Source: Marsupella aquatica
Lineage: Eukaryota > Plantae > Marchantiophyta
Length of the DNA: 64,000 bases
Assembly: GCA_973895155.1 (NCBI GenBank)
Contig: OZ316892.1
Location: 3,289,223-3,353,222, forward strand
Reading direction: 5' to 3'
The notes under the pieces: generated by a model
Seen by the model: only the letters and a program-made list of their open reading frames with translations
Databases searched by the model: none
What the model was told of the DNA's origin: nothing
Translations under genes and position numbers: made by a program
Part shown: piece by piece, positions 33,136 through 62,624 of the stretch
Position numbering within the stretch: the first letter of the stretch is position 1
Layout of the letters: every line of letters begins with the position of its first letter

Positions 33136-33175
33136 AAAATTTGCATGACTTTGGTTGTAATCCATTTTTTTCAGT

Positions 33176-37859: not shown

Positions 37860-37870
37860 CATGCGCAGGC

Positions 37871-38551: not shown

Positions 38552-39137
38552 AGCTGAACATTGTACATGCACAGTGCACCTGATGTGGATGTACTATTTT
38601 TTGAGATTGCAGAGATTCCAATTTTGAAAAGGAGTTGGGTAGGTGAGTTTATATAGGCAGCACTTATCTTGTGCTCTGGCGTCAGTGGCTCGGTACATGC
38701 CTATACAAACTTATCCTTACAAGCCTTCTTGGAAGTATTTAGGCTGAGTGGTCATTTTCATAAACACTTTCATCAAACTGCTAAATTAAAACAGGACTTC
38801 TAAGTTGTAAGCGTATAAATTATCAGGCATGCAATTAATCAAATTGCCCTATAAGTTTGTCATTGAATGTATCCTCCTTTACAACAAAATATGTATGTGC
38901 CATGACAAGTTGGTTGCACTTCATTTCACCACGGATATGGATTTTGTAGTATATATTCAAACAATGTCCTGCATCCGTGCAGGTGCCTAGTACGTATTGT
39001 TCACATATCCCTTGTACCTATCAAAATCGGACCTGAGCACCAGTGGGCCAGATCAACTCAAAAAGCAGGAATTTTGTTGTCCTTGTATTGTCAGGTGAAC
39101 CCATTCTTCCAAAATTCACTGTCATCACGTAGGGTGT

Positions 39138-40016
39138 GTGTACATGGAGCCTGGTAAACGTAGAAAGTGTGACCACCCAGCAGTGTTTACAGGGGTCAGA
39201 GCGATTTTGGTCCATGGCCAGCATGGGTTGACCAAAGTGCATTGGCCAATTGTACAGAAACGATTCTCTGAGCTCCATGGCACTGTAGTTCAGGACATCA
39301 CTCCAGAGACTACACATGTTGTTGCAGGGACATGGCTATCAGTGATAAAGAAGTGGTCATGGTCCTACATGAATTCTGCAATTACTAAGCAAGGCCTAAA
39401 AGTAGTTGAGGCCTCTTGGATCACAGATTCCATAGCACATAAGATTGTACAGGATACTGAGCAATATGAGTTGTGGGAGGATGAAGAAGCTACTGCATCA
39501 GCTTGGGCTGAACAAGAAGTCTGGGAAGCAAAGGCACGGCTTGCTGATCTCCAATATGGACCTGTACTCAACAAAGGACAGAGCTCTACAAGGCTGAAGA
39601 GTATGTTGGCTGAGGAGACGAAGCAACCAACCCCCATTCTGAAAGGGCTGAGCATGGTATTTGTGGAGGCGGGAATTGGAGAGGTTAAGTGCAAAGTGTA
39701 CAAGTCCACAGTGCTTGACCTAGGTGGGACAGTGGAGGAGAATATAACAGAGGACACCACTCATGTCATTACTAAGTCATATCCCAAAGCCTGCCGCAAG
39801 TTTGGGAAGGGAGACATTCGCTTTTATGTCATGTCCCATAATGTGTTTGTGGTTTCATATGCTTGGCTTGTGGAATCAGTAGCAGCTGGGAAGCGTCAAA
39901 ACCCAATGGACTATGATCTTTTTGAGGCCTGGCCACGGAAGGGTCAAGATCCTTACAGAGAGGACTATGAGACAACAAGTGAGGAATGGGTCATTAGCGA
40001 TTCTGAATCAGAGTGA
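39138..40016 (+). CDS. Tandem BRCT-domain protein
   Basis: Two repeats: VFTGVRAILV..GTVVQDITPETTHVV..VVEASWITDS..YEL and ILKGLSMVFV..LGGTVEENITEDTTHVI..VVSYAWLVES..YDL. Confidence 0.82.
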   Translation: MYMEPGKRRKCDHPAVFTGVRAILVHGQHGLTKVHWPIVQKRFSELHGTVVQDITPETTHVVAGTWLSVIKKWSWSYMNSAITKQGLKVVEASWITDSIAHKIVQDTEQYELWEDEEATASAWAEQEVWEAKARLADLQYGPVLNKGQSSTRLKSMLAEETKQPTPILKGLSMVFVEAGIGEVKCKVYKSTVLDLGGTVEENITEDTTHVITKSYPKACRKFGKGDIRFYVMSHNVFVVSYAWLVESVAAGKRQNPMDYDLFEAWPRKGQDPYREDYETTSEEWVISDSESE

Positions 40017-40449
40017 GGAGTAGTAGCATCAGTTTGGACACAAGTTTTTTTGTATAAATCAGATCATTGAAATAAATGTGATCTTTGAACTAATGTACCT
40101 TGTTATGGTTGGTGGCAGTTGGGCTTATTTTACTGTTGGCGGATTGTTGTTTCCTGCTGCCTGGGGGTGTCACTGTAAACGTACATGCAAAGGCGGTACA
40201 TTTGAGGACAGCAGAGGAGGTGGTGACACCCTCCAACATTTAGGAATTTTGTGTCATTCACTTGACAATAGGTACACTACTTGCGAACCTGTTTTTTTCT
40301 TTTGGGGTGGTTTAGGGTTTGTGAGAATTTAGTACACGTTATGTTAACTCTTTTGGCAGATACAGTCAGGGATATATGGAACACAAATACCACCATTAGG
40401 CATCCTTGTTCACTGCTGTCCATGACTGCAGAGCTCCCAGCCTGTTACA

Positions 40450-43400
40450 ATGCACCCTGGTCACCACCCTCCCCAGACCCAGCCCAGGGCACAGGCACTG
40501 CCTTTGCATCATCCCACAAGGATATCACGCCATGATAATAAGCTTTGGCAGCGTGAAAGGTTACGAACCAGACTTTCAGGAGCCAGTAGGATGAGATGTC
40601 CTTGTGCAATCTGCCAAGGATCCCGTACCAGGGGTCTGAATGAGGTTTGGCGGCATATCGCGGTTCATGGAAGAGATCCACGACATCGAGTTTGGAATGA
40701 TCCTGCAGAGGAAGATTCTTCCGACGAGGAGTGGAGGTTAGAATTTGATGCTGCCAATGCTGCAAGACGGGCAAGTGAGGTTCTGCCTGGTGCATTTGAA
40801 AATGTTGTAGCTGGTCTCTGTGGGTTGTCAGCTCTCCAACGGGATGGTGCTCAGGCAGCACCACGTGACGAAGGAATTCATGTGGAAGAGATGGTGAGAG
40901 ACATCTTCCAAGACTTGGATGCATTTCATGATGGGCTGGACAACGAAGAGGATACGGCTGCAGATGCAAGTGTGCCCCCTGTCGAAGAGCCTCTTGATGA
41001 GTTTGAGATAGGGCAGGAAACCCCTGGGCATGATGGGATGTTTGGCTCTCCCCTGCAAATACAGGAAGGCAGGAAGTCTTTGTACCTCGGTAGCAAATGT
41101 TCTAAACTGGGATTTGTCATCATGTTCCTGAACATTTGCGGCAACCACAATGTCCCCAACATTTTGGTTTCTGAGTTGTTGGCATTCTTGCGAACAACTG
41201 TGCTACCAGATGGTAATATTTTGCCCAAGAACATGTACGAGGCAAAAAGATGCATATCTAATCTTGGATTGAACTATGATTCGATCCATGCCTGTCCTGA
41301 TGGGCATGTTCTTTTCAGAAAGGAGTATAAAGAATCGTTGATATGCCCTAAGTGTGGGAAGCACAGGTATCGGAACTCAGGAAAGTCTATGGTTCCCGCC
41401 AAGGTACTTCGTCATTTTCCACTCATTCCCAGAATTCAGCGGATGTTCAGAAGCCGTGCCATCTCGGAGATGATGACTTGGGCAACTGACAAGAAAAGTG
41501 ATGATGGGCTACAACGACATGCTGCAGATTCAAGGCAATGGAAACTCATAGATGAGATGTATCCCGAATTTGCTGCTGAGCCGAGGAATGTCAGACTTGG
41601 GCTGTCATTGGATGGGGTAAACCCATTTGGAGACAAGAACAACAAATTTTCGTGCTGGCCTGTAACTATTTTGAATTATAACCTTCCTCCTTGGATGACT
41701 ACAAAGCGATTTTTTGTTCTGATGGTCCTACTGATACCAGGGCCAGACAGTGCTGTATCTGCCAACATAGATGTGTTTCTGGCTCCCCTAGTGGAGGAAT
41801 TGAGAAAGCTTTGGGAGGAAGGAGTTCTCACATATGATGTCCTACAGAGGCTTGGGAGGTTAAACCCATTCATCCTTAGAGCCATTGTCATTCTGACTAT
41901 AGCTGACTACCCAGCCCATGGGATGATATCAGGCCAAACAACAAAAGGATATTGTGCTTGTACTATCTGTGGGTGCAATGTCACCAGTGAGTACTCCAGA
42001 GCCCTGCAGAAAGTGATATACATGGGCCATCGTCGTTTTCTGAAGGCAGATCACCCTTACAGAGAAAGACAGGCACTGATTGCACACTTTGGCAATGAGA
42101 TTGAGCAACGTGGACCCCCGACACGAGTGACCAAAGAGGAGATCAGGCAGTGGGGAGCACTGAGGGATGACTATATCAAACGAGGGGGCAGGGAAGATGG
42201 AGTGAGTGATCCAATAAAGCGATATGGTGTAAAAAGACTGAGCATATTGGACTTGGAGCTCAAGTACTGGAGGGTAAGCCTCTTGGAGTTGATGCTAATT
42301 GGGATACATGTTTTGGTTCAGAGCATGTGCATTCATTTCGAAGAGAGAGACTAAACTTGAGGCATTTCCTGACGCTTTTGCATTGCAACGATGCAGGAGT
42401 TTGAGCCAAGCAAACATAACATTGATGTTATGCACATTGAAAAGAATATTTGTGAGAGTCTACTCAGATTCTTGTGTGGAGAGAAAGACACTGGTTCAGT
42501 GAGATTGGATCTTGAACAGAGGGGAATGAAACCCCATCTTTGGTTGAGGCCACATGCCCACAGAGCTGATGTGCTCTTGAAGTACCAAGCGCCCTATGTT
42601 CTGACAGACACAGAGTGGGAACTATTTGTGCAGAGGTTGAGTTCTTTGAAGGTTCCTTCAAACTATGGCAGTGCTTTCAAGAAGCATATCATGACTAGAA
42701 AGCTTGGTAGTATGAAAAGCCATGACTACCATATGTTGATGCAACAGGTGTTGCCTTTATGCCTGAGGGGCCTGTTGCAGAAGCCTGTTCGTACTGTGAT
42801 CATGCGACTCAGTGATGTGTTTCGTCGTATTTGTGTGAAGGTTTGGGATGAAACACACTTCCCACAACTGACATAAGATGTCGCTCAGGTGCTGTGTGAC
42901 CTGGAGATTTATTTTCCTCCCGCATTTTTTGATGTCATGACCCACCTACTTGTCCATGTTGTGGAAGAGCTACACCAATTTGGGCCTGTGAGTGCTCGTT
43001 GGTTGTACCCTTTGGAACGGTACATGAAGCTACTCAAAGGTCACGTGAGAACATATTACAAACCTGAAGCAAGCATGGCTAAAGGTTACATCAAGGATGA
43101 GACTCTGGGATTTCTGACCGAATACATAGCACAATATGAGCATGTGAAGACCAGGGTGTGGAATTCTGATGAGGAGGAAGGGGTGATAGGTGAAGTACTG
43201 GAAGGGGCTGCAACCACAAAGAACCTGACCATATCTATGAGAGACTTGGCACATGACTTTGTATTGCACAACACTGTGGTGATGGAACCCTGGATACAGT
43301 GAGTGCATACATGTGCTATAATCCAGTTCATGAGCTTAAATGTTGTGTTCGTGTGGTTTTCTCCTTCAGCCTGTTCATGTTTACCCAAGCTAATGCTGTG

Positions 43401-44181
43401 TGGTTGTTCGTTCAGGGAGTATGAGTCATTGAAGGCGGCCCATCCCACTGTAGGAACAACTTTTCCAGGTTTCATGGAGTGGATCAGAGTGGCAATTAGA
43501 GAGCATCACGAGACCCACCCAGACATGGATGCAGATGTTTACCTACTGTCTAATGCCCCTAGCCTGAAAGTGAAGACTTACAAACGGATGAGAGCATATG
43601 GGAATCACTTCCGAGTGAAGGATGGTGATAGTGCCTACAGGGTGACGAATGACTGCGGGCTCATCACTGTATTTGAGCAACAGAGCCACAATCACGACAG
43701 GGCCTGGATGGAGATGGGATATGTGGGAGAATTAGTTGACATATGGGCTCTGGACTATGGGGCGGTGTCCAGTCCTGTGATTCTTATGAAAGGTTCATGG
43801 GTGCGGCAGGATTGGCTTGGTAACAGGGCTACCATGAAGAGAGACAACGACGGTTTCTTGCTGGCCAATTTTAGAGGGAAATTGCCCGAATGGTCTGAGC
43901 CATTTGTGTTTCCTAGTCAGGTGGAGCAAGCTTTCTTCCTGGATGTGGAAGACTCCCCAGGTTGGCGTGTAGTGTGTCATAAACAGGCCAGGCAACGTCG
44001 GATGAAAGGATCAAACCTTGAGTTTCATTTACACTCTCATAGTGCCTTTGATCGTCGGCGTTCAGACCAAGTGCCTGTAGTTCATGATAGCGGGGACTTC
44101 ATTCCTGTGACAAGGGTAGATGCATTTGCTGAAGGAGGCGAATTCAGAGATGCAGATGCCAACAGTGTGCCTGTGCCATGA
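40450..44181 (+). pseudogene. CACTA TnpD transposase; exons 40450-42273, 42397-43298, 43416-44181; one in-frame stop
   Basis: CPCAIC, IHACPDGH..CPKC, RNVRLGLSLDGVNP, YNLPPW, IADYPA, DVMHIEKN, MKSHDYH, FPPAFFD.MTHLLVH, ARWLYPLERY and EPFVFPSQVEQAFF match the Transposase_21/DUF4218/DUF4216 pattern. TAA at 42874. Confidence 0.93.
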
Positions 44182-44337
44182 GTAATGTGAATTGTTTGCA
44201 TGGACATTAGTGAGGGGAAGGATGTGTAATAAAGTAATTCTGAAGCAACACAGATGTATGGATGGATGCCTGGTGATTGTGGTTGCATTGTGTTATACGG
44301 GGTGACCATAGATGACATGTTTTTGTGGTCCAGTAGG

Positions 44338-47300
44338 ATGGAACAGAGTGACACAAAGATGTGTGAGTATGAAAGGAAAGCTATGGAACAACGAGCATAC
44401 GTGAAAGCCAAAATCGCAGAACTGGATCTGGAAAAGGATGTGGCTGAATTGTAAGGGAACGATTCTCAACTACACCCCTCCGCTGAGTTTGTGTGACATG
44501 AATAGTTCAATGTGGCACTGAAATTGTGACTGTATTCTCATATTGGAATGTCGCAGAGCCACAGCATTTTCAAAGAAACAAAAGGAGTACGCAAGAAGGG
44601 TGACCAGCACTATCTCTGGGCCTGTGCGTCGGAGTGACAGGTTGAGCAAGAAGGTCGTACCTACAATGGCAGAATGTGGAGATGACATTGATGCTGCACA
44701 GGTGGGTGCAGACACTAGACAAGAAGATGCAGATGATGAGTATTTTCCAGAGGAAATGGATGAGGATGGGGGTTATGAAGATGAATACATTGCAGAGCAG
44801 CCCCAAAAGAAACATGTAAGTAGTTTTCCCAACAAGGTTTTGAGTTAAAAACTCTTGTTTAGAGGTTTCATATGTTCAGTACTACACATATGTACCTTGC
44901 TTAGTTCCTGACATTGTAGTTGGTGATGTGATGTAGCGTCCTGCCAGTTCTGTTTTGCCTTCGAAGCCTGTGCATGCACCATACCAGCAGGGGGGGCTGA
45001 CCTCTGATCAAGGTTGGCAAGGTGGTAGTAGTGGTAGATCCCAGGCTGGTGCCCAATACTATGGCAGGGGGCAAGCTCTAGGTTATGCCCGTGGTAGAGG
45101 CAGAGCAGGTCTAAACCCACAATCTCGTGGGTATGGACGTCCACCTCAACCATGGGGATGTGAGTATATATCTATATGCCAGTTCTTTGTGAAGGCATGG
45201 CACTCCTGAATTTCAGACTGCATATCAATTTTTGACATTGTTTGGGATGTATTGGATTCAGACAACATGAAATTCTGTCCACCTGCCATTGCATGCAGAT
45301 TCTGCCCAACCTGATTGGGCAAATGCTAGTAATGATCAGTTCCAATGTCCACAAGGACAGACATGGGTTGAACCAGGTTGGGAGGATGGTGGTGGGTCGT
45401 GGAATGAACAAGGTTGGGAAGGTGGTGAAGGTAATTGGCAGGGATATCAAAATTCAGTACCTACAAATGCTGGAAGAGGAGCAGGTAATGTCTGATCTTG
45501 TCAGCAATGGAAGAACTCATTATATGTGGAGTCCATTCACGTGGGGGGGACTCTGCACATGTATAATGATAGAAAATGTATGTGTGCAGGTTGGACAGTC
45601 GAACCATCGACTCAAGTATTCACTAATGCCCCTATGCAGATGCAGCACGGAAGGGGGACAGGTATGTTGGTGAATGTTCAGTTGTTTTCCTACAGTTAGT
45701 TTTCAGTACATATGTTTGCACACACATACCTAGAAAGTGACATCATCCGGCCCCTGTACTAGGCTGGACAGGTGGTCCAGGGTCGCAACAATTTCAGAGT
45801 GCAGTCCCTGCACAGGCATCTACAGGCAGAGCTACAGGTATGTATGTTTGAAGAATTTTTCTTGAAGTGAAGCATTGAATGTTGCCGTCATCCATTCTGC
45901 TATATGTAGTTCTCAAGCATGAATGGCATTGTATTTTCCCAGGTGGCTTCAGAACCCCAGGTAGGGTGAATGAAGGGGTGGCCAATACAACGCCCAGTAC
46001 TACCGAGAGCAGTGCACGAGGGGAGGTGACAAAGAAAGGGAACGTAAAGTTGAATGAGAGACAATGGGTGGATGCTGAGTGTCCTCGCAAGAACCGATGA
46101 CATGCTGATTTGAAAGCTGAAGTATTGCGTTGGTTAGATGTGAGTGTTATTAATTTTAAAAAACAGCATCCAAAAGATTGGAAGACTGTATGTGAAAATG
46201 TTGCTGCCAAATGGAATTATGTGGGCAGTGATGATGGCGTGGACATAGGTTGCCTAGAGAGTACAGCAGGTAAAATTATCAAGCAAGAGAGGTGGAGAAT
46301 GCATAAGGCTTGGAAGGAAGGTGGGGAGAAGCCAGATATGCCTCCACCAGCCAGTTGTGATGATAAAGTGTGGGCAAGGTTAGTAGCTTATTTTGTAACA
46401 GATGCTTCAAAAAAGAAGAGTTCACAGATGACCGAGGCCAGGTTGAGTGTTCAGAACCCTAATCTGACAGGAAGGACCGGCACTGCACCGACAGCTAAAC
46501 GTTTGGTAAGAATGAATGGCCTAGCTATGTAATTTATGCTACACTATGTACTATTTTTTAGTGTAAACCCATACATGTAAACTTTGTTTTTTAGTGTACG
46601 TTCCCTGAATATTGATCGATAACTTGTGTTTGCCATGCATGTGCAGAAAGCCCAATTGGGGCAAAGCCCTTCAAAAGAAGAGTTGAGGGCTGAAATTGTG
46701 AACACCCGGGCTCAAGAGGGTGCATCTGAATCCTCCAAGCATGTAAGTTATATGAGTTCTGATTGGTAATTGAATGACCTGCGTTGAATTTCAGGTGTAC
46801 ACTGTATATAACATTGATTGTGCATATATTGCCCAACATTTCATATGGAGTGATTGAACCTATACCCCTGTGTCATGTAGGGAGGTGGATCTTCACTTAC
46901 AGAGATAAGTGGTTGTTTGAAGGCTGTCGAAACATGTCTTCCAGAGATCAATGAACGTTTGAATTCATTGACTGACTTGTTCCATGTGAACTTCAAGACA
47001 TTAATGGAAGCTGTTGTGTCGGTGAGAGATAAAATTGATTCCAATTCTGCAGGAGTTCCACCATCACCACTTGAGGTGGCAAAGTCGATGCACTCTTCTG
47101 GCATGCCAACGACATGTAGGCTTGAGGTGGATGATATCAATGTTGGGGCAAATGAGGATATCAGCAAGCATGACAATGATACCATTGAGCCAGATTCATG
47201 CTATGTAGATCTTGACTCCATTGCAGAGATAAATGATTTGCAGAATGTATCATTCTCAATGACAGGTGTGCCTCTTGTTGAGATAAATCCAACCAAAGAG

Positions 47301-47774
47301 TTAGTTGGTATGACACTCCCAGGTGATGAACCTGCTACTGTGACAGTCCTAACAGAGGAACCTACTGAGCCTAGCTTCACTACTGTGAAGAGAGGAAGCA
47401 TGTGCACACGAAGCAAGTCTGCTGGTGGGAGCAGAGCCACGTCAAAGGTTTCATACAAACCTCCAAGAACAGTGCTGGCAGAAAGATCTAAGGTGGAAGT
47501 GGGGAAAGCACCTAATGCTGAGGGACAAAGTGGCTTGTTAGCTGTTGATGAGAGTGGAACACGAGTAGGATTTGCCAGAGTGCAGGTTGGTTCCACAACG
47601 TTCCATGGCAAGAGGATTCCCCCAGGTTATTCAGTAGTGTTAGTCACATTACTAGTGAAACCTAAAGCTATCCTTCCCATTCCAAACACAAATGATGATC
47701 CTCCTCAAAAGACACTTGGAGATGCTGCAGGTTCTTTGGTATTATGGCCAAGCAAGTTCATAGAGGATCCATAA
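44338..47774 (+). pseudogene. Multi-exon CACTA TnpA/ORF2-like gene
   Basis: Coiled/acidic and Gly-rich exons. Transposase_24-like exon PPPASCDDKVWARLVAYF..KKSSQMTEAR..TGRTG. C-terminal VGFARV..FHGKRIP..LPIP..TLGDAAGSLVLWP domain. In-frame TGA at 46098. Exon limits are approximate. Confidence 0.72.
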
Positions 47775-50424
47775 CAATGTCATGCCATTATTTGTTTGTA
47801 GTGTGAGTCATGTTATGTAGATTTTAGATGTCAAGAAGCAGTACAAGAATCATGTCCTCTTGGAGATTCATAGTATCATGCATGTGCTTTCAGTTATCTC
47901 ATCCTACAGTCATCAATTATGAGTTCCTATTTTGTCTAAATTACATTGATCACATTGTAAACTATTCCATTGGAATTCAAATGATCTTCATTTTTTAGCA
48001 AGATTGTGATTGTGTTTAATTCTTATGAATGTTTTATGTAGGATACGCTTATATGATGCTTTGTTTCATGTGGATGTCATTCATGCTATGTTCATTTCTT
48101 GTATTCAATGTGTTATATTTCTAAAGTTAGAACATCAGGTTTCTATGTATTGTAATGTCGAGTGCTCTCTCTCCTTATGAACTGTCCCTCTGTGTTCATT
48201 AGTCATGGTTATAACTTGCATGTGAACCTTATTAGTTATAAACATGAGTATATAGAGTCCCAAATGGTTCTGTTGTGTGACGCGGGCCAGGGTCTCCATT
48301 GGTCTCTCCTGTGATACTAAATAGTCACACGCTAGTCGTTGTTGAATGCGGGTAAGTCATGTATGTGACTTACGATGTGACTCGCTGAAGTCATATTGCA
48401 GTCACGTCGAAACAAGGCTAGACTCCACAATAAAGTCACAGATCAGTCACAAATGGGTATCAAGCAAGTTGCAAAGCCCAGTATCAATAGTGACTTCCAT
48501 TTTTTGGTCTCAACTTTTGCAACTCCAAGGGTCACAGCGTGGGTCAAGTCACGTTGAGTCACAATGAAGTCACATGAGCCAAAATGAGTCATATATTGCG
48601 GTCTCAGTTCACCTCGGATTCTTCTAGTGCTTGTTGGTTGTTGGATTCCAGGGGAGTAGTTGAGCCCATAGTTGAGGTGTCCTTGGTGGCCATTCAGCGG
48701 AGATTGAGGTGCAGGACAAGGAGACAAGGAGAATTGATGCAAGATTGAATGTTCTGGTCAGGGAGAGCACAATGTGATTGATTTGAGGTGGAAAATTTGT
48801 GTGCATCGCTGGTGGATTGTGGGTGCTGCTCAGGGATCCAAGGAGTGATACCAGGGCAAGTGGGCACCCCAAGGTTGAGTATTGGAGAGATCAGAGTGTT
48901 GTTGGAATCCACGAGATAGATTTTAGGGCTAAAATGAGTGCCCAGGATACAATGTCAAAAATTACTGACTTACTACTAGAGACCAGGGAGGAGCTACTGG
49001 AGTAAAAATTGAAGGTAGGAGCTAGGAGGAGGTACCCATGGAGGCCAAAAGCGAATTCAGTTCAGGAGTGATGCATAGAGGTTTGTGAGAACTTACCTAG
49101 GTAGTGAGTAGGACATTTAGAATAGATGAGCAACAAGTTAGCCAAGTAAATTTCAGTTTCAAGCTTTGCAAGAGAGTAATTAGATGCATTGGATGCTGTG
49201 ATAGGAGGTAGAGAATAGACATGAAGGAGAGTAGCTCCTGAGAGTAAGTGAGCTCTCAAGTTTCAGCTATTTAGTTGTGCAAATTTTCAGTTTCAGGGGC
49301 TTGTATGTTGTTGGCTAGTGGAAGCTAGCTATGTGCATTTTCGCTCAAGCCAAGTTGATCAGCAGCTGCAGTGTCCCAACTCTAGGAAAGTAGTGTGTGT
49401 ATGAGAGAGGGTTCAGCCTGGAAGATTCACGTGTGTTGGAAGCTTGAATTGTGAGTTACATAAAGCAGCCCTCTTGACTTATCTCACTCTATTGTCCTGT
49501 TTTTTATGTTGTATATGACTGGTGGGTTTGTATTATCTTCCATTCAGTCTGATGTTGAAGGTTCAAAAGTGTTAATTGGTTGTGCATAGTAGACTATAGC
49601 ACGTTCTCATCCGAAAATGCCCAAGTATGGATTTGGTCATTATTAGTCACAAACACAACTACATTTTACGGCTGATTAACGGACTTTTAGAAGACGTTAA
49701 TCATGACGTATATGGCCAGCGGAGGAAAGACCTCATTCACGACGTTAATAGAGCAACGTTAATTACCATGTTTGGGGAGACGCTCTTTACCACGTCCAGA
49801 ACATTGTTCTTAACGTCGTACAATAGGAGGTATATGATTTTACAACGTGTCAGGCTACGTAAAATATCCCGTAAAATATACCCAACGCTCGTGTTTAAGT
49901 TTACCCATAAACGTCGTGTCAGGCTACGTAATGAAATATTAACCACGTCTAGTACGTCGTAATGTGCAAGGCACTAAACGTCGTATTATTTTAGCGTCGT
50001 CCGTGGCCGGTAAATTATGACCTCTTTTGAGACGTATGGGTAAGTTGACATAGTAGGGGACGATGTATCGTGCTCTTGTTGTGCGACGTACGTTGGCTTA
50101 TGTAGGGCTCAACGATGTACTATGGTGGTTAAAGGTCTTATAAAGGAGGACGTATACGGGAGTACATACGTCCTATTACACATTGCACTGTCTGGGTGGG
50201 GTCCTTGGTAGGGTTCAACTCACACACAATATAACCATGTGTTTTTACATATTGTAACCCGGAATGAGGTGCCACCACAAATGGGTGGCCTGAATCAAAA
50301 TGGCAAAAAATATGTACATAATGCATGGAGGACCTCTTGCTACTGAAATACCTACAACCTAAAGTCATCGAGAATGGGGCCTATCACGTCCCGATCCTCC
50401 GCCTCATCGCCGACGCAACTGATA

Positions 50425-52516
50425 CTACTGGGCATCCTGCTCTGAGGCACTGCTATTGCCTTCTGGTTCCGGTGCAGCCGAGGGTGGAGCCTTGCCTCTA
50501 GGTTTTGGCACTATCTGCCTGGTGCTACGTGTTACCCTAGTGGACCGCCTCTCACCACTCCTCCTTCTCCTCTCTCTATCTCTCCCTCTCTCTCTATCTC
50601 TATCTCCCTCCTCCCTCTGTCTCTCCCTTCCTTGTCCTCTGGCCCTATGAGTCTCTAGTGCAGGGAAAAGGTCACGAGAAGTGGAGCCCTGCTGACCGCA
50701 AGGTACTGGGTCCTCCTCCTGGGTACCCTCCTCCAGGGCTACAGTGTTGGGCTCCTCATCCTCCTCAATGGGCCGTGCTACTAAACCTTCTGGTGCAGTC
50801 CAATCCACCTATGCACAAGATACAATTTCAGTCTAGGTTTGCATAAGATACAGTTTCAGTCTAGGTCTATGGAATGGTACTGAACAAGCTAGCACACTTA
50901 CCGGGTGGTCTTCCAAAATAGAGTCAAGCTTTGCCCATAGGGCTGCCGGGCCATATCGCTTAGAGTATAGCCGCTCCTGCTCACTCGGCTTGGCATCTCG
51001 GCCATACTTCCGCTTCTGTAGCAAAGGGAAGTTACGTCGTTTAGGGCGATGTTATTTACCTATCATCATACGACGTTACTAATACATACGTCGTCCATTA
51101 AGACGTTTAGGGGGACTCCATAGTATTAATGTTGACAAGACAACATTAATACAGTGCTAACGTAGTTAGAGGCGAGGTACTACTAAGAAAACATCGTAAG
51201 AGGGAAGGTAATGTGCGGCCAAGACGACGTTAATACTAAAAAATGACGTAAAGCACAGGATTTCACCGCAGCAGCACACGACCACATAATGCAGACTTCA
51301 ATGAGTATAGAGTGAGTCACTGCACTTACATAGGTTGCAAGAAATCCTCCCCATCCTCCCTGCCCCCAAAAATTAGTCACCTTCTTGCCACTCGCTTTTC
51401 AAACAGTAGTGGCCTTGTCTCCCATATGCACTCGCTTGCCAACTGGGGTATCTAGGGCTGCTTCCAATTCGGAGACAATCAATTTGAAGTCCTCTTCACT
51501 CATCCCATCAGGTTTCTTGTAATCCCCTGTTCTCAAGCATCTCAGTTTTTGGACCTTGGCTCTCCACCTAAAACGCCGATCAGCTAGGTGATTCACGATC
51601 TTCTTCCTAATGTGGTGGTAGTCAATCTCTCGCCCATTTCTGAATCCAGCCTGCATGTCATTCAGGAGCAATTGGAACTTCTTCTGGTTATGCACAAGCT
51701 CCTTCCAAGTAGTCCAACCGGGACAGTGTTTAGCTACGCACGTCTGCACTCTGTTCGTGAGTGCTTTCTCATCCATGACGTCCGGCCTAGCATCAAAAGA
51801 GGCAAGGGTGATGGTGGGAAGGTGCTCCCTGTTGGCAAAAGCAGTTGCAGCTTGCTGAGAAGGACGTCGCCACTTTGGAGGAAACAATCGTGAGTGGTCT
51901 TCTCTCCTCTCTGCTCTTATATGTTGATCTCCCCTATGTCTCTTGCTAGAAGTGCCTGCATTGTGGTCATTGGATCCTTTCCCCTTTTGCCTTCTCCTTT
52001 CAGTGCTGCTATTTGACGAAGAACGAGATCGCCTCCTCCTCCTCCTATGTTGCCGATGGTCCCTCCTATCATCTTTTGGCCTGTATCTCTCATGTGGGAT
52101 TGTCACTTGACTCTTGATAGGAGTTCAAGCTACTGCCTGAGAATCTAGTTGAATCCTAGTGAAGGCAGGATCATCCCAACCATCGTCTGGTAGACTCGGG
52201 AACGAAGGCAGCATATCAATCAATGCCCCATCAAGCTCGGGCGTGGATTCAGGCACTTAATCGTGGCCCCCTCCTCAATCTTGGCCCCCTCCTCGTCGGT
52301 AGGAGTGTTGGCCTCAATACTCTCCAGGTATTCTATAAACCTGGACTCCTTTGTTCCTTGTCCTCTCATGAATTGCCAACTGTGGTTGAATGCTTGAACT
52401 AGTGAATGTGTCGAACGTAGGGCTCAATGCACCTTCTCCAACTCCTCTGGATCCTCCAGACCCACCTTCAGTGCATCAAAGTTCACACTACAGGGAAGAT
52501 AGCCTGGATACAACAT
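50425..52516 (-). pseudogene. Degraded multi-exon accessory (TnpA-like) gene of the CACAA element
   Basis: ORF pieces 51399-52106 (Arg-rich, then WTTWKEL..IVNHLADRRFRWR..KPDGMSEEDF), about 50850-51020 and 50425-50808. Stops in the 5' part. Confidence 0.5.
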
Positions 52517-52916
52517 GGCAGACTATTCTGTGAGCAATTATGTGAGGTAGAGGAGGCAAGGAGAGGTAAGGACTAGAGGTGGGGAATGTCGAATGTGAGT
52601 CACATTCAAACACTCCCTCGATACTCCCCTGATGTTTCCCAAAGGAAATGACCGGGGATGCCTAACCTTGCGGATCCGCCATTTTCCTGATTTTATGTTG
52701 TTACAGACGTCGTTACGTGAAACGACGTACATAATACATCATACTTAATGACATTAATCTAGATAAACGTCGTCCTTTGTGTTTTAAAGGTCATTGTTTG
52801 CGGGTCCATTGACGACGTTAAATGTTAGGGTTGCTTCGAAAAACAATGCTAAGGCCTTGTAACGTATTGTATGGCATTGTACCTTAGGGTTAGGGTTTGT
52901 GTGGTAGGTTTAGGGT

Positions 52917-54452
52917 TTGGATCCTTCCCTACGCATTAATCAAAGACGGTTCAATTTGTTGCAGGGCATGGTGATCTATGCATCGGACTCTCTGTCTGAT
53001 GAGAGAGATGATGGGGATACGAGTCTTGGCTCCAGATACCGGCATCGTGATAGGGGTAGAGACTATTCGCCGGATAGGAGGGATCATTCGCTGGTTAGGA
53101 GGTGGGACTATACGCTGGATAGGTGGAGGGATGACTCACTGGATAGGAGGGATTATTTGCCGCAGAGGAGGGATTATTCACTAGAGAGCAGGGGTCGTGA
53201 GTCATTGCCCCGAAGGACGACTAGTGGATCTCGATGTCATCACCATCCCAGTCATGAGGACGGAAGGAGAGGAGCCGCCATCATCGGTCACACCGTCGTC
53301 GATGATCACGTGAGCCCCAGGCATACAGCTCACCTTCGCCAGTGGAGGAGGGGTTTGGAGCGGCCATGGCTGCTCTTCATGGTATTGGACCAGTCCGCAA
53401 GATGCCTTGCCCTTGTAGCACAATGCAAGGGCGTTGTATCTCACGAGAGCACTACCATCATTAGCCACTTAGGGATCCACGGTCGTTATGTTCCACCGAC
53501 ACCAGAGGTAAGTTTTATCCTTTTGCACAACCATTTTGAGTAACTTTAACTTTTACTAGGTTGGGGTAGGTTGGCTTCTTGAGCAATGTTCATGTTTCTC
53601 GCTTTCTGAAATTTTGTTGCATACATGTGGAACAGATTCATATTGTACGGTCTCCCACTAAGGACCGCATGAGAGAGGTTGCACGTCGAGCGCTCTCTGC
53701 ACCGGTCCCCCCATCGGCACTAGCTAGATGCCACCTTACGGGCAATAGACCGTGTATTTGATAGGGTGAGGGTGGCATAGGTGCACCCTATTGAGAGGGG
53801 AGTAGTGGTCAGTACTAGACCACGGTTGTTGGAGTCTCGTCCGCCTAGGATGAGGCCACCCCGTTGCCCTTTTCTTGATGCATCTAGTGCCCGGGAACCG
53901 AGAGAGTTACGTGGGAGAGCCTTGGACATCATAAAGGACTCATTTCCTACCCAATTTGGGCTCCCATTGGACCTTCCAATCAGGGAACCTATCATAGTCT
54001 GGGGTCGCCCTTGGGTCCTCCTTCCCTCCACATTGGGCCCCAACGTAGGATTAGGATTATTTTCACTTGTAGATATTGTGGTCCCTGATGGTTGTGAGCC
54101 CGAGGACTTGCCTCAACTCTTTCCATTCTATGGGCCAAAGTATTCTGCACAGCATTGGCGCATCTTGTCTCGACAATGTCTGACCTTTGGTCGATATGGC
54201 ATGTCTGTCAAGCTAGACCCTAGGTATGCTCAGATAGATGGTTATCCACCCCGCACTGGAAACTTGGCAGGTTACATCAATAGCACTGTGGGTTGTCGGC
54301 GTTTAGGTTTTAGGCCAAACGCTGAGTGGCACGAGTACCATGACCAGACCCATCCTCGTTTGCCACAGGCTTGTACTCATTACATCTTGACCCATGCTAG
54401 CCGCACCATTCGAGCAGGGGAAGAGATTTTTGTAGATTATGATTGGCATTGA
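52917..54452 (+). pseudogene. SET-domain gene with an Arg/Asp-rich first exon; SET region 53781-54452
   Basis: PSTLGPNVGLGLFS, FPFYG, IDG..GNLAGYINS, PNAEW and ASRTIRAGEEIFVDY are the SET signature motifs in order. Stops lie just upstream (about 53760-53780). Confidence 0.75.
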
Positions 54453-54907
54453 GGATGGACATGATACATTCAGAATATATGGACCCATTGTTGCATATTG
54501 CATTAAATCATATTTAATTATTTGTTTGATTATAATGTTGTATTAAATAATGATTTTAACAATTGTAGGATGGTGCATACATTACCCCCTGGGGAATCAC
54601 TCGTTGGATTATTAGAACGGGGTGCGAACAAATGAAGGTTATTTTTAATCTTGTTGGTGTAATAATTATAATCAAAAATTTGTACTAAGGCGTTTACAAA
54701 TCCAATTTGGGTAAAAATATTAGTTTTAATATTCAGCAAGGTATTTAAAAATTTGTCAAAGTCATATAATAAAGGGTACAAGGGTATTTTTAATTGAATT
54801 TATTTATTAATTTATTTTTTCAAATTTCATTGGTTTGTTGTCACGTGTTTTAGGGGTTTTACTCTAAGTGATTCCCCAGGGACATTACCCCTACACCTCA
54901 CCTATCC

Positions 54908-57900
54908 ATGATGACGATGTCAGCGCGTGACTTTCACCTACAGGCCACTCTACACTTTTATGATGAGGAAGATGTTGAGGGGGATAGTGACCATGAGGAG
55001 TACCATGATGCATATGATGGAGACTTTGATGAGGACAATGGAGATGAGGGGGATGCACCCATTCTTGAAGAGGAAGCTTTTGCCCACCTTGTGGACATTC
55101 ACTTTGGACCACATGCACCTCAGGGCGAGAGGCCTACCATGGAAGTAGACTAGGAAGATTGGGACCAGTTGGAAATGGAAGCCAGAACTCCACTCTTCCT
55201 GGATTCTCCATCATCACGGTAAGTCTCATGATTGAATAGTATTATGTGTCGACCATTACTTACCACACCCAATGTCATACCTCAAACTAATTTCATACAA
55301 TTCCCTGGTTTCACAAATGCAGGTTGGGTGCCACTTTGTTGATGTTGAATTTGCAGGGAGTTTTCAACACTTCAGACGTCCATACAGATGCACTATTCCA
55401 GCTATTCCACAAAAAACTCTTGCCCCAACCAAACACTCTCCCTAGGTGTGTGAGGGAAGCTAAGAAGTTGTTAACCTCAATTGGATTGGCTTTAGAGACT
55501 ATCCACATGTGTCCAAGTGGTTGCATCCTTTATAGAGGGACATACTCTGAGCATACAGAGTGCCCAGAGGCACAATGTAAGCTTCCACGGTACTGACCGG
55601 ATACCATTGGCAAAAAGATCCTAGAGAAGGTGGTGTCCTCCTCCTCCTGGCGGTGTTATGTTTGTTAGAACGTAGTTTTGCCCATTTTCCTCGTCATTTC
55701 CGACGTACGCACACGTACGTCCTTTCTAAAGATGTAACTTACGTATCCAAATCACCAGTTAGTTTTTACGTCGTCTACTACATGGTACACATATATTTAC
55801 GTTGTTAATTAAGACGTAAACTGAAGTAGTCGACGTTACTAACATCGCTGAGAAACTTTACGTCGTATGTTACATTGTACCGGTGTATTTACGTCGTGTG
55901 AGATGACATTAACTTTTATTTAACGTCGAAGTGATGCTTGTAACATTGTTTATGGCAGGTCTTAAGGTATTTCTCGATCACACCCTGACTATAGCATCTT
56001 TATCGACGGAAACATTTATCAGCACTTCAAACATGGCATGCTGAGAACGAACAAATCTCCACCAGGGATTATGCGGTATCACCACGATAGTCCAGCATGG
56101 AAGCACATTGATAGCACTTGGCCGGATTTTTCTAGGGAGCCAAGGAACGTTCGATTGGGGTTAGCAATAGATGGGGTAAACCCATACAAGCAATGACGGA
56201 AGCCTAAGTCCATATGGCCAGTTCTTTTGCTCAATCAAAATATCCCTCCATGGTTGGCGATGAAGAAGGGTCATTTTCTCCTCCTTGCTATCATTCCGGG
56301 TCCTCAGGCCTGTAAAAATCCAGACATTTGTTTGGCTCCAGCTCATGAAGAGTTGCAGAAGCTATGGGAGTTTGGGGCAGTGACCACAGATGTGACTCGT
56401 ACACCGGATAATGGGAGGACATTTAATATGAGAGCAATGATCACCCATTGCACCACGGATGGTCCAGGTAATTCTCAGTCATAGAAATAATTGAGACATA
56501 CATTGTGCATGGTTCTATTGCATGTGACAATGGTTTTTGGCCTGAATGTTTTAAATGTCATTGATAGGTATGGGCACAATATCTGGCTTGAAAGTGGCCG
56601 GTTATTCAGCTTGCCCTTCATGTGGTCCTGAGTTGCATGGGAGATACTCCAAGCGTCTGCACAAAACCACATATGAGGGCAGCCAGTAGGGTTCGTTTGC
56701 CAATGGACGATATATTGCGACATAACACCACACATTGGGCTGAGACTGATTTTAGGCCATGTCCCAATGGGCCTTCAGCTGAGGGTCAAATTCAAATGGC
56801 GGAGAAAGTGGAGGCAAAATTACTTCAACCTAAGCACTGTGGTGTCAATCGTCGCTCAGCTTTGTGGGACTTGCCTTATTGGAGGGTAAGTAAAATCAGA
56901 TTGGACCTATTTTAAGTTAGTGACTTGTAGTATTCTATTTATGAGTTTCTCACTAGCACAACCTGGTTCTTCATCTTGTAGAGGCTCCAGATCCGATGGT
57001 TGTTGGACCCCATGCATATTGAAGTAAATGTTGCCAAGAACCTGGTGAAGCACATTTATGGGATGAATGATACTCGTGGGGTCCGAGAGGATGCAAAGTA
57101 GGTTGGAGTGGTCAAGAGTTGTTGGATAACTCGAGATGGGGAGAAGCCACCTGCTCCTTGGGTTTTGCCAAAACAGATTTTGAAGGAGATGAACGGGATG
57201 ATATGTGAAATGAAATTCCCTAGCCATTACGGAGCCGGCTTCCGTGGGTGCACTACAAGGGAAGACCACATACCCCCAATCGGCTTGAAGTCTCACGATT
57301 ATCACAAGTTGATTCAGCATGTGTTACCTATTGTCTTGCATTGTTGTGATGATTCTAGAGAGCGACACCTACTCCGACATACAATATATGAGTTGTGCTC
57401 CATTTTCAGGTTAGCATAGTCTTGTTGGCATATATTTATGATATGATCATTGCATATGTTTATCATACTAATAATTTGACAAAATCTTGAGTACCCCTTA
57501 CAGGTGGTATGCGCCAAGGAAATAAAGGAGAGTGAGATTCCCGAGATGAGGGAACGGTCTGCCGTGTTATGTGCAATATGGAGAAGGTGTTTCCCCCATG
57601 TATTTTTGACATGCAGTTGCATTTGCTATGTCATCTGGTGGATGAGGTAGCCATTGCTGGTCCAGTGCATGCACGGTGGATGTATTGGGTAGAGCGGTTC
57701 ATGAAAGTGCTAAAGTCTTGGGTGCACCAACCCGCTCGACCAGAGGGAAGTATGGCAACAGGGTATATTATGTCGGAGTGCCTGTTCTACTCAAGCGGGG
57801 TGATAGGGAGTTTGGACACACAAGCTCCCACAGCTTGGGAAGAGGCACAAGATGATGACAATGGTGGGTTGCGAGTGATGGGCGCGTCAAAGAAGCGATC

Positions 57901-58708
57901 ATTACATGATGACATTTTTCGCCAACAGATCCACAATTATGTGTTGGAGAACCGCACCGAGATGTCAGATTGGAGAGAGTTGTATAGGTAGGGACGTAAT
58001 CCTTCATGTTGAGTCCTACTTAGATTTGAAATGTACATTCAAGGTGGTTGGCACAAATTGGGATCTAATGTATATGTGACCCAGTACTTGCAGGGCATGG
58101 GTGGAGCAGCAGCAGATAGGGGCAGCACGAGATTGTGTTCATGCATCATTTCACATATGGGCCTTGGACCGCATGGAGGGGCTCCTTGCAATGCATGGCC
58201 CTACATTCATTCCCATTGATGTACAGAACATCATTAGGGGGCCTTCAATGTGGGCTATGAGTCATACTCACATGTATGAGTCAGGGCACCACTTTCGGAC
58301 TTGGAGGACGGACCATATGAAGAAGAGTACTTGTAACTCTGGAGTATATATGGTGACCGATGTAGGTGATGTTGAGGTTCCTTATTGTGGCATTGTCTTG
58401 GATATTTGGATGTTAATTTTGGCTCGTTTACCACCACGGTGTTAGAGGTGAGGTGGCACAAGTCCATCATGTCACCTCCAACAAGAGCTACCATGGTGAA
58501 GGATGAGTGTGGATTTTATTATGTGGACACGACCCGTGTTGCACCAAGCGGGACTGAGTTTAGTGACACTATAGTTTTTCCTAGCCAAGTGGATCAATGC
58601 ATTATGGTTCCGATGCACAACATGGGAGGATGGTCCATTGTGATTCCCATCTTTCCATGCCGCAGGAAGGGCTTCATGCCATCAGCTATCGTAGACAATG
58701 AGGATTGA
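54908..58708 (+). pseudogene. CACTA TnpD transposase of the CACAA element, with multiple stops and frameshifts
   Basis: IHMCPSGC..CP, PRNVRLGLAIDGVNP, NIPPW, LDPMHIE.NV, GLKSHDYH, FPPCIFDMQLHLL.HL, GPVHARWMYWVERFMK, IVFPSQVDQ. Confidence 0.92.
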
Positions 58709-59357
58709 CATGATAGACTCACTATCCCCATTTGTATTGACTGTTGTCACGGTTCGCATATAAACAGACATATTTCATGGCCTAGGCATCTGTCAATTTG
58801 CAGAGTGGGATGGGCTTGTTAATCACTTGGTAAAGAACAAGTAATAACCATACATTTATGGACATGATCCCTTGGCCTTCTGCTACAAGGGATAACTGTC
58901 ATTAACGTCATCCGAAACAATTTACGTCGATACCAAATTCTCTAATGTCATTTATAGCTACGCAAATTTGACGTAATGGTAGTTAATGTCGTGTACCGAA
59001 CCATCAGCCGACGTTATAAGGGTTTATTAACGTCCTTCTATATGTCATAACACGGTGAAAACGACATTCTTAACGATGTATGGCGCAATGAAAATATATT
59101 ACCTTGAGTAGAACGACGTTAATAATTAGATACGATGGTTCAGTCAATGTACTAAATTTTCTTCGACATTAATCACAGGAAAAAGATACAACATTCAAAC
59201 CACACAATTGTTGCGACAAATAGCACTCATGGATGTGTTTATTGCTACACATAGACCAAATAGAGATACACAATAGCTCTACCATCCTTTCTACTGCAAA
59301 TGTAGCCTACATGAGTCATGGTCATCCCTCTACACCCTCCCTCCAGACTGATGTTGA

Positions 59358-59849
59358 TTAAGGAGTCCCTTCTCCAGACCAGTAGTACTCCTCGTCCGCT
59401 TTCCTCTTCTTGTACGAAGCACGCCTTTGGCTGGCATTCCAATTCTTCCGCACAACAGCTTCACCGGCCTGTAGCCTCTGAGCCTCCACCTCGGCTGCAC
59501 AACTTTCCTTGTAATCAAACATAGCAATCTGAAGTTCAGTGGGTGACAGGTCACATTTAGACAAGGTGGGAGGGTAGGCCTCACCATCATCATCCTCGGG
59601 CGAATCTTCTAGACCACGATCACTGCTCGGATGCAACAAGAACTCTTCAGCGAAATGCTCGATCAAGCCAGCATAGTCATTGAAGTGCTCCACAACCTGT
59701 TTCCACGTATTTGCAATCAAGAAATCGGTCTGTGAGGTACATAGCTTGTCAACAAGCCCTCCACGGCAAAAGAACCCTCGAACCATCTTCTCCTCCTCAC
59801 CAAGCGGGAGGAAACAACAATGCACATTTGCAAAGAACTTCTGCACCAT
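59358..59849 (-). CDS. Possible partial BRCT-like protein
   Basis: FFANVHCCFLP..FFCRGGLVDKLCTSQTDFLIA resembles the N-terminal half of a BRCT domain; the C-terminal Trp motif is not evident. Confidence 0.4.
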   Translation of the reverse strand: MVQKFFANVHCCFLPLGEEEKMVRGFFCRGGLVDKLCTSQTDFLIANTWKQVVEHFNDYAGLIEHFAEEFLLHPSSDRGLEDSPEDDDGEAYPPTLSKCDLSPTELQIAMFDYKESCAAEVEAQRLQAGEAVVRKNWNASQRRASYKKRKADEEYYWSGEGTP

Positions 59850-62624
59850 AGCTGAACACTTTGCCTCCCACGGTTCAACTTCTCTACACTGAGGACCTTT
59901 GATGTCTTCACTCGGGAATGTTGGCTATAGTGAGCCTCCCGCCTATAGTTCAATCTGTCCTCCGCTGATATGTGGAATTAACGTCATTTTTCCTGATGCA
60001 CGTCTCGGGGGGGTCACTTCCACGGAAGTGACACATCACGTGCGACGAAGTATAGGCCCATTTAAATGGGTGTGGCGGAAGACTTCCAAAGTTTGGTGGA
60101 AGAACACATAGGGCATGTTTTATTGATTGGTCGACTTTAAAGAACACATAGGCCTATTTAATTGCAAAAAATACTTTCTATAAAGTTTTTAGGGGTTTTT
60201 TAATAAAAAATGACAAAATTTTAAGAAAGAAAGGGCTTTGCAAAAAAAAATATTCACTTTAAAGTTAGGGGGGTCAAACCCTAAAACGTCGCACGCGATG
60301 TATGGCCCTCCATATAGTGACGAATGGTATTCTATGACGACGCATACGTCGTTCCAAATGCCTAAACTTAAGAATGTCGTCCTATACATCGTTCTCTTTT
60401 ACGTCTTCCGGGAACAGGTAAGTTACCATGTCTAGTAAGACGTAATGTAAGGTACAACGTGATATACGAGGTAACTTACCGTGTCTTAAAGGACGTAAAG
60501 TTAACGTCACACAAGTTGACGTTATCTGATCCCGTCGGAACTCCGGACGACATCCGACAACAGTCCGGAGCTTAACGACGTATAGTCCATCGTAAATGAA
60601 AGGAACGTTGTCTTGGGTTAGGTTAAACCTGGTCCTGAAATGCGAAAATGTAGTTGTGAAAATGTGTCTTAAAGCCTAGTCACAGATCTGACCACTAGAT
60701 TTCAGTCACTTTAAATAAGACGCTATGTCAAAATTATGACTGGCTTGATACCCCCCAAACTTTAGTCACAAGGAGTCATGGGCAGTCGTAAAACCTAGTC
60801 ATATAACACCGGTTTCTACTAGTGTTTGGAAGATTAAAACTATTATTTAGAGTAGTTATTTGGAAATGTATCTGAAGTAGTAGTGTTGAGGTTGTTAGCA
60901 CCCTGTTGTAAATACTTCAATCAACACCCAGTCACATAGGTTGTGTGTTTAGGGGTACTTAATGGAAATGTATTCTTTGGTTCTTGCATTGGTTTAAGCT
61001 GGACAGGTATTAAATTTGTTAACACCCAATGTACCACAATAGATCCTGTATGATCTGACTTAGAATCAGGAGTGCCCTTTGGCCATCATAATGAGCATCA
61101 TAAGCCAGAACACCATTTTGACAATGTGGTATGGTAATCAAAATGCCTTAGTTTACTAATACACACCTAATGCTCGTCTTGGTTTTCCCCTTGTGTGTTG
61201 TCAAGGCAGTATCAGAGGAGAATGCAGTCACTCAAGATTTAGAAGATTCTCCTCTATACTAAAAATTAAACATCTCTTAGACCTTCAAGTTAGTATATAT
61301 TAAGGTCATTCTACCACAACATATATTATGGACAACAATTGCCTCTCAAAACTAGAGATGAGGGTGACTTTCCAAGCAGTTAGGGGCACGTGTGAGTTTA
61401 CTGGAGGGCCAAAGCAACTTTTTCACCAAAGCAAACTGGAGGGCCATTTTCACACTAAGTATAGTGTCTGGGGTAGCTCACTTGAGTTGAGACTCATAGG
61501 TCTAGTGTTCAAATGTTGTGAATGATTATTTTTCAAATGTTGTGAATGGTTGTTTCCTCTATGTGGGGTTTGACTGATTTCCCCTTGAATTAAAACCATT
61601 TTTGGAATCTTTTTATGCCCCAAAGGTCTGGTGGAACCAGTGGTGCTAGATTAATTTGCTAAAAGACAAATAGGGGATCCACTTCACTTAAATGTCGGGG
61701 TATTCTTTGGTAGAGGCTTTCTAGCTTTGACAAGGTAGGATCTTATGAAGATTTGTGGGTCCACTTCTAATGCAAAATGACTTAAAATAAGAATGGACCA
61801 ATGGGCCACCAAAAGAGAGCTCCAACAAGAGCTTTAACCCTACTCCATTGCATGTAGGATTGGTAAAAGCTTAGGTTAAAATTGCTCCCAATGTTTTGTA
61901 AGTGAATATCATCAGTTGGATGGCGCTCTCCCCAATGGATGGCCCCAATCAGATCTTGGAGACCAATCAAAAAGTGGAAAGTGTCACAAAGCCACCCTAA
62001 GGCTCTTCAGAATTATATCCACACCGTAGTGCATGTAAACAATACTTACATATACAACATGACTAGGGATTAAGCTCTTGGTGTTATATTCCCAACGATG
62101 CCTCCAATCAAGACTTTACTACATCCAAGATTCCTATGGTAAATGACTAGAGGCGAAGAATGCAGTTGCTTGAGAGCTTCCAATTATATCCCACGTACTG
62201 GTGTGTGCAAACAATATTATATATATTTACAATTATAATAACGTATCAAGTGTTTTTTTAGTCCTTTGTCTCAATAAGGCTCATGGGCATGAAATATACA
62301 CAACCTTTGGATTTGATTGGCTGTTTCCTTGTTTTCAGGATCATTGATGGAAACAATGGACACATCTGGCAGATATGTGCTTCCCCACATTGCCCCATAA
62401 ATGCCTATACCGACTCCCTATGGACCAGCCTTTCTTGCGCAACGCACGGGCATAGTGCTCGTATCCCACATGAAACAGGGATGAAGCTGTTAGAGTTATC
62501 TCCCACACAATTCCTGAAATCAAAACTTTACTACATCCAAGATGCCTGTGGCACCTCACTAGAGGCAAAGAAAAATGCCTTTGCTTGAGCCTAGAGGCAA
62601 AGATTGATGAGGGCGCGGCCATCC

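Follow-up and report, generated by a model that had tools for sequence, protein, structure and literature searches.

What is a SET domain doing inside a transposon of the liverwort Marsupella aquatica, and does it belong to the element that carries it? The window, as we call the whole stretch of DNA analysed here, comprises 64,000 nucleotides (contig OZ316892.1, positions 3,289,223 to 3,353,222). A preliminary description of its sequence had pointed to a compact SET domain with the motifs G.GLF, YINS and GEEIFVDY, lying between TnpA-like and TnpD genes inside the TIRs, and had proposed an element-encoded histone-mark writer or mimic.

The motifs are present in a 223-residue stop-to-stop frame (53781–54452, plus strand), where GLGLF occupies residues 90–94, YINS 165–168 and GEEIFVDY 213–220.

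54027..54443, plus strand: SET domain proper, with GLGLF, PFYG, Y139, GNLAGYINS, PNAEW and GEEIFVDY

The frame closes with DWH-stop directly after GEEIFVDY, which leaves only 3 residues past Y220 and therefore no post-SET, Cys-rich or other, in agreement with the description. The PF00856 HMM, which had been named as a check, gives 25.9 bits for the window ORF, above the Pfam cut-off of 22.4. When 73 homologs were scanned with it, 24 passed, 30 matched below the cut-off and 19, for the most part fragments or long gene models, had no match. Neither the window ORF nor the scanned homologs contain pre-SET, AWS, CXC or Cys-rich post-SET Pfam domains, and judged by its sequence the window SET is without the features of the canonical plant classes Su(var), E(z), Trx and Ash1. 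AlphaFold2 with an 82-row alignment gave a model with pLDDT 93 and pTM 0.87, and it was this model that we used for structure searches rather than an earlier, poor one from 11 rows (pLDDT 43). In Foldseek against the PDB, all matches listed were SET proteins, with LegAS4 first (prob 1.00), and the viral structures of BFVD gave 20 matches with E up to 0.001, most of which carry the name of a SET protein. On the strength of this model, we regard the SET fold of the predicted product as certain. VIA alignment placed the model on SET structures with Z 11.8–13.1 and rmsd 2.1–3.2 Å across 117–134 residues, and its partners (Set1, SETD8, EZH2, MLL, SET7/9, ASH1L and PR domains) were all tied. Because the tie spans enzymes of H3K4, H4K20, H3K27 and H3K36, the substrate class cannot be read from the fold.

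The surrounding element is well delimited, and the TIRs named in the description are present:

16736..60824, plus strand: outer CACTA (En/Spm) element, with perfect 16-bp TIRs at 16736–16751 and 60809–60824 and the 3-bp TSD TTT
18049..48629, plus strand: nested CACTA element, with a 13/14-bp TIR, the TSD CTT and its own TnpD; apart from the SET gene
51402..52124, minus strand: divergent ORF of 241 aa, with coding-like sequence upstream to ~52600
59358..59924, minus strand: convergent ORF inside the right end, matching 0 Pfam families

A TIR/TSD pair of the outer element's quality was seen in 0 of 100 shuffled windows. The outer element measures ~44 kb including the nested CACTA, which sits inside other repeat-like DNA, and its own sequence comes to ~16.7–16.9 kb and 49.6–60.8 kb. 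The TnpA-like label of the description is not supported by any match: PF03004 TnpA was not found in the outer element, and the divergent ORF at 51402–52124, which is followed by an Arg/Glu-rich ORF (50425–50808), has no useful Pfam match, no Atlas score reaching 0.9 and no BLASTP match to the PF03004 ORF of the nested element. It may still be a divergent TnpA.

Several further features of the window lie outside the SET gene. The repeat-like DNA that flanks the nested CACTA (16900–18048 and 48630–49596) is unrelated to the ends of the outer element. We suspect an LTR remnant, a reading that is unproven because a search for TG..CA ends with a TSD around the nested CACTA returned just two unconvincing pairs. 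At ~60140–60320, very high depth in all four sequencing runs suggests a high-copy small element in the right end. The nested CACTA carries a 790-aa ORF (26147–28516, minus strand) with a 29-residue match to the PF01555 N6/N4 DNA methylase (28 bits, cut-off 26.7), a second chromatin-modifying cargo that echoes Plavaka PAG2. Its other cargo comprises an NIF phosphatase (24871–26010, minus strand), DUF7869 in a frame of 1265 aa (33161–36955, plus strand), NSD-like PHD fingers below the cut-off (37844–38470, plus strand) and two BRCT domains (39099–40013, plus strand). Within it we also noted two oppositely oriented arrays of 27-bp units (30742–31257 and 32299–33138), 79–81-bp repeats at 28581–28951, and 22-bp subrepeats with a 34-bp inverted pair 13 kb apart (24486–24657 and 37210–37573), possibly a further element. 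Beyond the outer element there are, to its right, an intronless GC-rich ORF of the cytidine/dCMP deaminase family (63375–64000, plus strand; PF00383, 38 bits) and, to its left, an intronless protein kinase ORF (12819–13982, plus strand), a KN-type homeobox ORF (10470–10943, plus strand) and, by eye, Copia-like remnants (3100–6900, minus strand).

The position of the SET domain relative to the transposase gene proved to be other than described: it lies within the TnpD gene rather than beside it.

52968..53507, plus strand: predicted shared exon 1, an Arg/Asp-rich region followed by a TAD zinc motif; phase-0 donor GAG|GTAAG
53408..53489, plus strand: TAD core, CPC-x2-C ... H-x-G, divided by a frameshift
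53636..54452, plus strand: SET exon, phase-0 acceptor CAG|, ending at TGA
54569..55218, plus strand: TnpD exon 2, acidic linker; phase-0 acceptor TAG|, phase-2 donor
54587..54881: MITE in TnpD exon 2, 295 bp, with a 14-bp TIR and an 8-bp TSD
55323..58708, plus strand: rest of TnpD in several exons, with Transposase_21, DUF4218 and a DUF4216-like end

The Arg/Asp-rich exon that had been noted upstream of the SET domain (52968–53507) is indeed there, and it is also exon 1 of TnpD, which the description had missed. With the first exon of TnpD ahead of it, the SET is predicted to be an alternative exon within the transposase gene. The TAD of the window scored E 5e-10 with an X at the break and 4e-6 without it, among 643 translated segments, against a profile that we built from 8 other sequences, including the TAD of the nested TnpD. 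The only other strong match of this profile in the window was the nested TnpD's TAD, itself part of the profile. In the nested element the TAD motif opens a continuous TAD–Transposase_21 frame. PF13963 (cut-off 27.7) did not match the broken pieces of the window TAD; it gave 22.5 bits (E 1e-4) for a homologous locus, L001, and 21.8 bits for the nested TnpD, both below the cut-off. Downstream, the exon 2 acceptor at 54569 stands 116 bases past the SET stop, the exon 2 frame is in phase once the MITE is removed, a phase-2 intron leads to exon 3 at 55323, and the remainder matches PF02992 (49 and 71 bits) and PF13960 (97 bits). A 69-nt exon at 54569–54638 that we had considered was dropped once the 295-bp MITE was recognised there.

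Homologs bear out this layout. A tblastn search with the homolog P0001 covered 53676–54449 at 59%. Locus L001, 51% identical in the SET, has the same exon order and the same phase-0 donor and two acceptors, with a Ser-rich stretch in place of the Arg/Asp-rich one in its exon 1. In 252 homologous proteins the TAD pattern occurred 8 times, and removal of one false match inside Transposase_21 left 7 whose SET is preceded by a TAD-like motif; the TnpD exon 2 signature followed the SET in 8 of the 252. Most other homologs are single-exon calls on short contigs, whose genomic context is not informative. One homolog (P0038) holds TAD and SET in a single 423-aa frame, and predicted gene models of Riccia sorocarpa include a TAD–SET protein (P0042) and a TAD–partial SET–TnpD protein (P0086). 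Further splice forms may exist, since P0086, P0114 and P0105 of Riccia each fuse a portion of the SET with TnpD. Contigs of two runs (X1 and X5) contain diverged copies that connect the SET stop with TnpD exon 2. We conclude from the predicted exon structure that the SET exon is inside the TnpD gene, in its first intron, and that exon 1 is very probably spliced alternatively to the SET exon or to TnpD exon 2.

The copy in the window is dead, with three frameshifts, two stops and a broken TnpD. The description had blamed upstream stops, and the damage is wider than that. Exon 1 is shifted out of frame near 53266 and again near 53419 and contains a TGA at 53303, and the SET exon has a frameshift near 53720 and a TAG at 53778–53780. 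TnpD is interrupted by the MITE, by a TAG at 55151 in exon 2 and by several stops and frameshifts in 55323–58708. Related copies are in better condition: contigs of 3 of the 4 runs are without the three indels and have C at 53303, contigs of 3 of the 4 runs join 54578 to 54882, skipping 303 bases and thus lacking the MITE, and homologs read through the position of the TAG at 53778.

DNA transposons of plants often pick up pieces of genes, so a recently captured host SET fragment, a passenger in this copy only, has to be weighed, and that the window copy is a pseudogene would fit it. The breadth of the family stands against it. A profile search of 1.84 billion representatives found 123 clusters, defined at 50% identity, with E up to 0.001, 31 of them at 1e-30. 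The named members belong to Riccia sorocarpa, Calypogeia fissa and Ginkgo, and those of Calypogeia fissa are the closest named relatives (56–60% identical). Four public runs yielded 382, 219, 766 and 28 contigs matching the region, and because these range from under 90 to over 99% alike, they represent a family with many diverged copies. Variant sites in the ORF fell at the third codon position in 17 of 23 cases (p 8e-5, in the best-supported 40 of 286 rows), and the window differs from L001 at 39, 29 and 62% of first, second and third codon positions. These comparisons show a SET family that appears old and under constraint. The only canonical host SET among the matches was a partial one, P0141 (E 6e-4). 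The layout of L001 at 51% identity, the liverwort TAD/TnpD–SET models and the 123 clusters together mean that this is no recent host fragment. We therefore treat the passenger reading as already refuted and its chance as virtually nil, and take the SET to be the element's own across the family.

In a tree of 112 of 254 rows plus one outgroup fragment, the window falls in a 71-row clade (SH-aLRT 97) that takes in all rows labelled TAD or TnpD, and a separate 18-row clade contains the Ginkgo row and P0185/P0191. Near relatives of the latter pair, P0201 and P0239, also start with a TAD-like motif. The tree was made by a quick method without bootstrap and carries long-branch warnings; it can neither root the family nor name a donor. 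Stretches picked by sequence patterns, which catch close relatives only, contained 0 relatives among 18 from viral contigs and 0 among 29 from prokaryote genomes; 1 of 101 from metagenome contigs was a relative. An Atlas cluster of bacterial 'type III effectors' (0.95, 169 features in common, a SET in 11% of its members) has a recognition of 2114, below 2300, and we take its kinship with the SET family as a lead only. Some members have other N-termini, such as P0061 (DUF5763-like) and P0153 of Calypogeia fissa, P0109 of Ginkgo (Gb_21150) and Cys/His-rich types, and P0201/P0223/P0239 also belong among those with other N-termini or an intronless TAD-like start; these are possibly domesticated genes or genes of other carrier elements.

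Could the protein be an active enzyme? Most residues expected of one are conserved: the SAM-binding Asn N167 is kept in 73 of 82 alignment rows, Y139 in 77 of 82, the GLGLF glycine G92 in 72 of 73, and the C-terminal catalytic Tyr Y220 in 64 of the 69 rows with a letter there, across 22–67% identity. In the VIA superposition the 82-row model ends at SETD8 339 and SET7/9 338, so Y220 falls on the C-terminal Tyr, which we take to be the catalytic residue at SETD8 Y336 and SET7/9 Y335. The terminal Tyr had been described as retained, and the His of the usual NH as replaced; both observations extend to the family, in which the His is found in 0 of 82 rows and Ser stands in its place in 79. At position 116 each of the 78 rows counted has Tyr (44) or Phe (34), and position 218 is Tyr in only 1 of 68. 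We presume that these two positions correspond to EZH2 Y641 and DIM-5 F281, and that position 116 is also where G9a and EZH2 have their Tyr-to-Phe changes. Past the catalytic Tyr, 64 homologs have a median of 6 residues, and 29 of them have 5 or fewer.

RomA/LegAS4 of Legionella is the closest solved protein by sequence profile (E 2e-7; next other protein E 1.6e-3) as well as the best Foldseek match. It shares GNLxxYIN without the His (GNLTRYINFS there) and NAEF/W, and differs in its ~20% identity and in its ankyrin repeats and cSET helix. Because LegAS4 falls outside the VIA Z top 50, we treat this kinship as a lead only. In a hand-numbered profile alignment, F116, Y139, N167 and Y220 align with LegAS4 Y135, Y159, N181 and Y220, which are four of the six cleft residues named in the available part of one study (10.64898/2026.05.29.728679); LegAS4 S158 and Y231 have no kept counterpart here, the first position being variable and the second lying beyond the protein's end.

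These features bear on whether the SET is instead weak or dead, serving as a decoy or reader of methyl-lysine or a host complex, or needs a partner to act as the post-SET lid. A post-SET of 3 residues, the missing His in 82 of 82 rows and the Tyr-to-Phe change that 34 of 78 rows show at position 116 speak for this. According to the portion of a review at hand (PMC3178901), a post-SET is found in all SET methyltransferases, and a very short one may explain inactive PRDM constructs. Yet N167, Y139, Y220 and the GLGLF glycine are kept throughout the family's range of identity, and because the SET of active LegAS4/RomA also lacks the His, its loss is not decisive against activity. Nor need the Tyr-to-Phe change be damaging: in G9a and EZH2 such changes raise trimethylation rather than abolish activity, as given in the available text of PMC3914023, and they favour higher methylation in G9a, DIM-5 and EZH2 in the parts seen of PMC3914023 and PMC3178901. 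The Phe at the position of LegAS4 Y135, together with the Val two residues ahead of the catalytic Tyr, would make di- or trimethylation the favoured outcome. A decoy or partner-dependent SET thus appears distinctly unlikely, and the TAD–SET protein of intact copies is, from its conserved residues and modelled fold, probably a SAM-dependent lysine methyltransferase. The proposed histone-mark writer is hence plausible, with the reservation that the post-SET is nearly absent.

What such an enzyme would methylate is a separate matter. As far as the available sections of 10.64898/2026.05.29.728679 go, LegAS4 methylates H3K14 in cells and engages H3 by its SET and ankyrin domains together, and for this reason likeness to LegAS4 names no substrate here. 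The target of an active TAD–SET could be other than a histone, either TnpD, tuning the transpososome, or a host silencing protein. An N-terminus common to TAD–SET and TnpD suggests co-assembly, the protein is without any reader, pre-SET or ankyrin domain that could direct it to histone tails, and the fold matches tie across substrate classes. On the other side, the closest proteins of known structure in the sequence-profile comparison methylate histone H3 and, by analogy, the SET cargo published for other transposons, which has been read as histone-directed, would point the same way. We consider a non-histone target unlikely; for a histone substrate with an anti-silencing effect, which we infer, our overall expectation lies just under even.

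The non-coding parts of the element offer a candidate place for such an effect, in the form of clustered WACGTC(G)T motifs:

52690..52870: WACGTC(G)T cluster between the divergent genes, candidate binding sites
49597–50200, 51020–51260, 55690–55960, 58880–59180 and 60280–60660: further WACGTC(G)T clusters, candidate binding sites

Between 49597 and 60824 ACGT occurs 78 times, compared with 28 ± 5 in 200 dinucleotide shuffles (maximum 42). Upstream of L001 the excess is weak (5, against a shuffle mean of 1.8 and a shuffle maximum of 5). The pattern in the window matches that of the TnpA anti-silencing systems, as presented in the part available of 10.64898/2026.08.24.746577, whose section 4 describes TnpA of Arabidopsis binding dense motif clusters. 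CpG observed/expected is 0.86–1.5 in the motif clusters and 0.37–0.54 in the host flanks, which fits protection from methylation.

It is also conceivable that TAD–SET writes a repressive mark, as viral vSET does at H3K27, on the element, on competitor elements or on host defence genes. Its compact SET without a post-SET is built like the viral ones, and H3K27me3 marks TEs in bryophytes according to 10.1101/2022.10.24.513474 (for context on H3K27me3 at transposons see also the accessible part of PMC11982613). But the known element-encoded regulators, TnpA and VANC, activate, and the lesser CpG depletion of the motif clusters relative to the host flanks speaks against it as well. This makes a repressive writer, in our judgement, very unlikely.

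We favour the following scheme for intact copies. One promoter would give rise to two proteins that share exon 1, with its charged low-complexity stretch and TAD. Splicing of exon 1 to the SET exon would produce a TAD–SET protein of ~450 aa, a likely SAM-dependent lysine methyltransferase, and splicing to exon 2, with the SET exon skipped, would produce the TnpD transposase. The shared TAD may bring TAD–SET to the element's own chromatin or to the transpososome; the histone mark that it would set there would keep the element open to transcription, a role played by TnpA and VANC in flowering plants. That an element-targeted TAD–SET lysine methyltransferase isoform counters silencing in this way is a proposition we hold evenly balanced.

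SETMAR likewise combines a SET with transposase coding sequence in a single gene; there a mariner entered a SET gene of the host, whereas here the SET belongs to the mobile element and separate predicted isoforms carry the two catalytic domains. The element resembles maize En/Spm and Arabidopsis ENSPM3/7, as far as the available accounts of these describe them, in its CACTA TIR, 3-bp TSD, Transposase_21/DUF4218 TnpD and clustered motifs, and in the prediction that one transcription unit yields a transposase and an accessory protein. In En/Spm, TnpD and TnpA arise by alternative splicing of one gene (PMC13547354 and 10.64898/2026.08.24.746577, each in its accessible part). Unlike in En/Spm, where the accessory exon is the DNA-binding TnpA, it is a SET enzyme here; the SET exon is in the first TnpD intron and would share the coding TAD exon, and no PF03004 TnpA was detected in the outer element. 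Transposons of other kinds are known to carry SET genes. Plavaka PAG2 of red algae, compared by description only, is an EnSpm-superfamily element with a SET; in the passages available, its SET is part of a separate accessory gene, fused to PF01555, and Plavaka transposases form a distinct lineage (10.1101/2025.02.11.637652). HarbingerS and MuDR of Phytophthora (PMC12730594) and proto-Helentrons, whose SET is Clr4-like (PMC4067079), belong, on the evidence of the portions seen, to other superfamilies and hosts and carry the SET as separate ORFs. SET cargo on transposons is therefore already known. Our literature search, to which Repbase Reports, most subscription papers and preprint supplements were not open, found no account of a SET exon in a land-plant CACTA TnpD gene. 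The passages available on transposon-borne SET genes report no assay. Intact natural homologs of ~260 aa make the methyltransferase reading testable, and the family would offer enzymology a minimal SET without a post-SET.

It is tempting to speculate, although we find the full picture rather doubtful, that CACTAs of bryophytes, and perhaps of other non-flowering land plants, carry a bacterial-effector-like methyltransferase as an exon of the transposase gene, guide it by the zinc finger to the ACGT clusters, set their own histone mark against Polycomb or H3K9 silencing, and let splicing fix the ratio of transposase to writer. The known plant anti-silencing factors, VANC and TnpA, bind DNA and rely on enzymes of the host. 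If our reading is true, a methyltransferase spliced to the N-terminus of a transposase would be a direct, element-encoded writer of chromatin.
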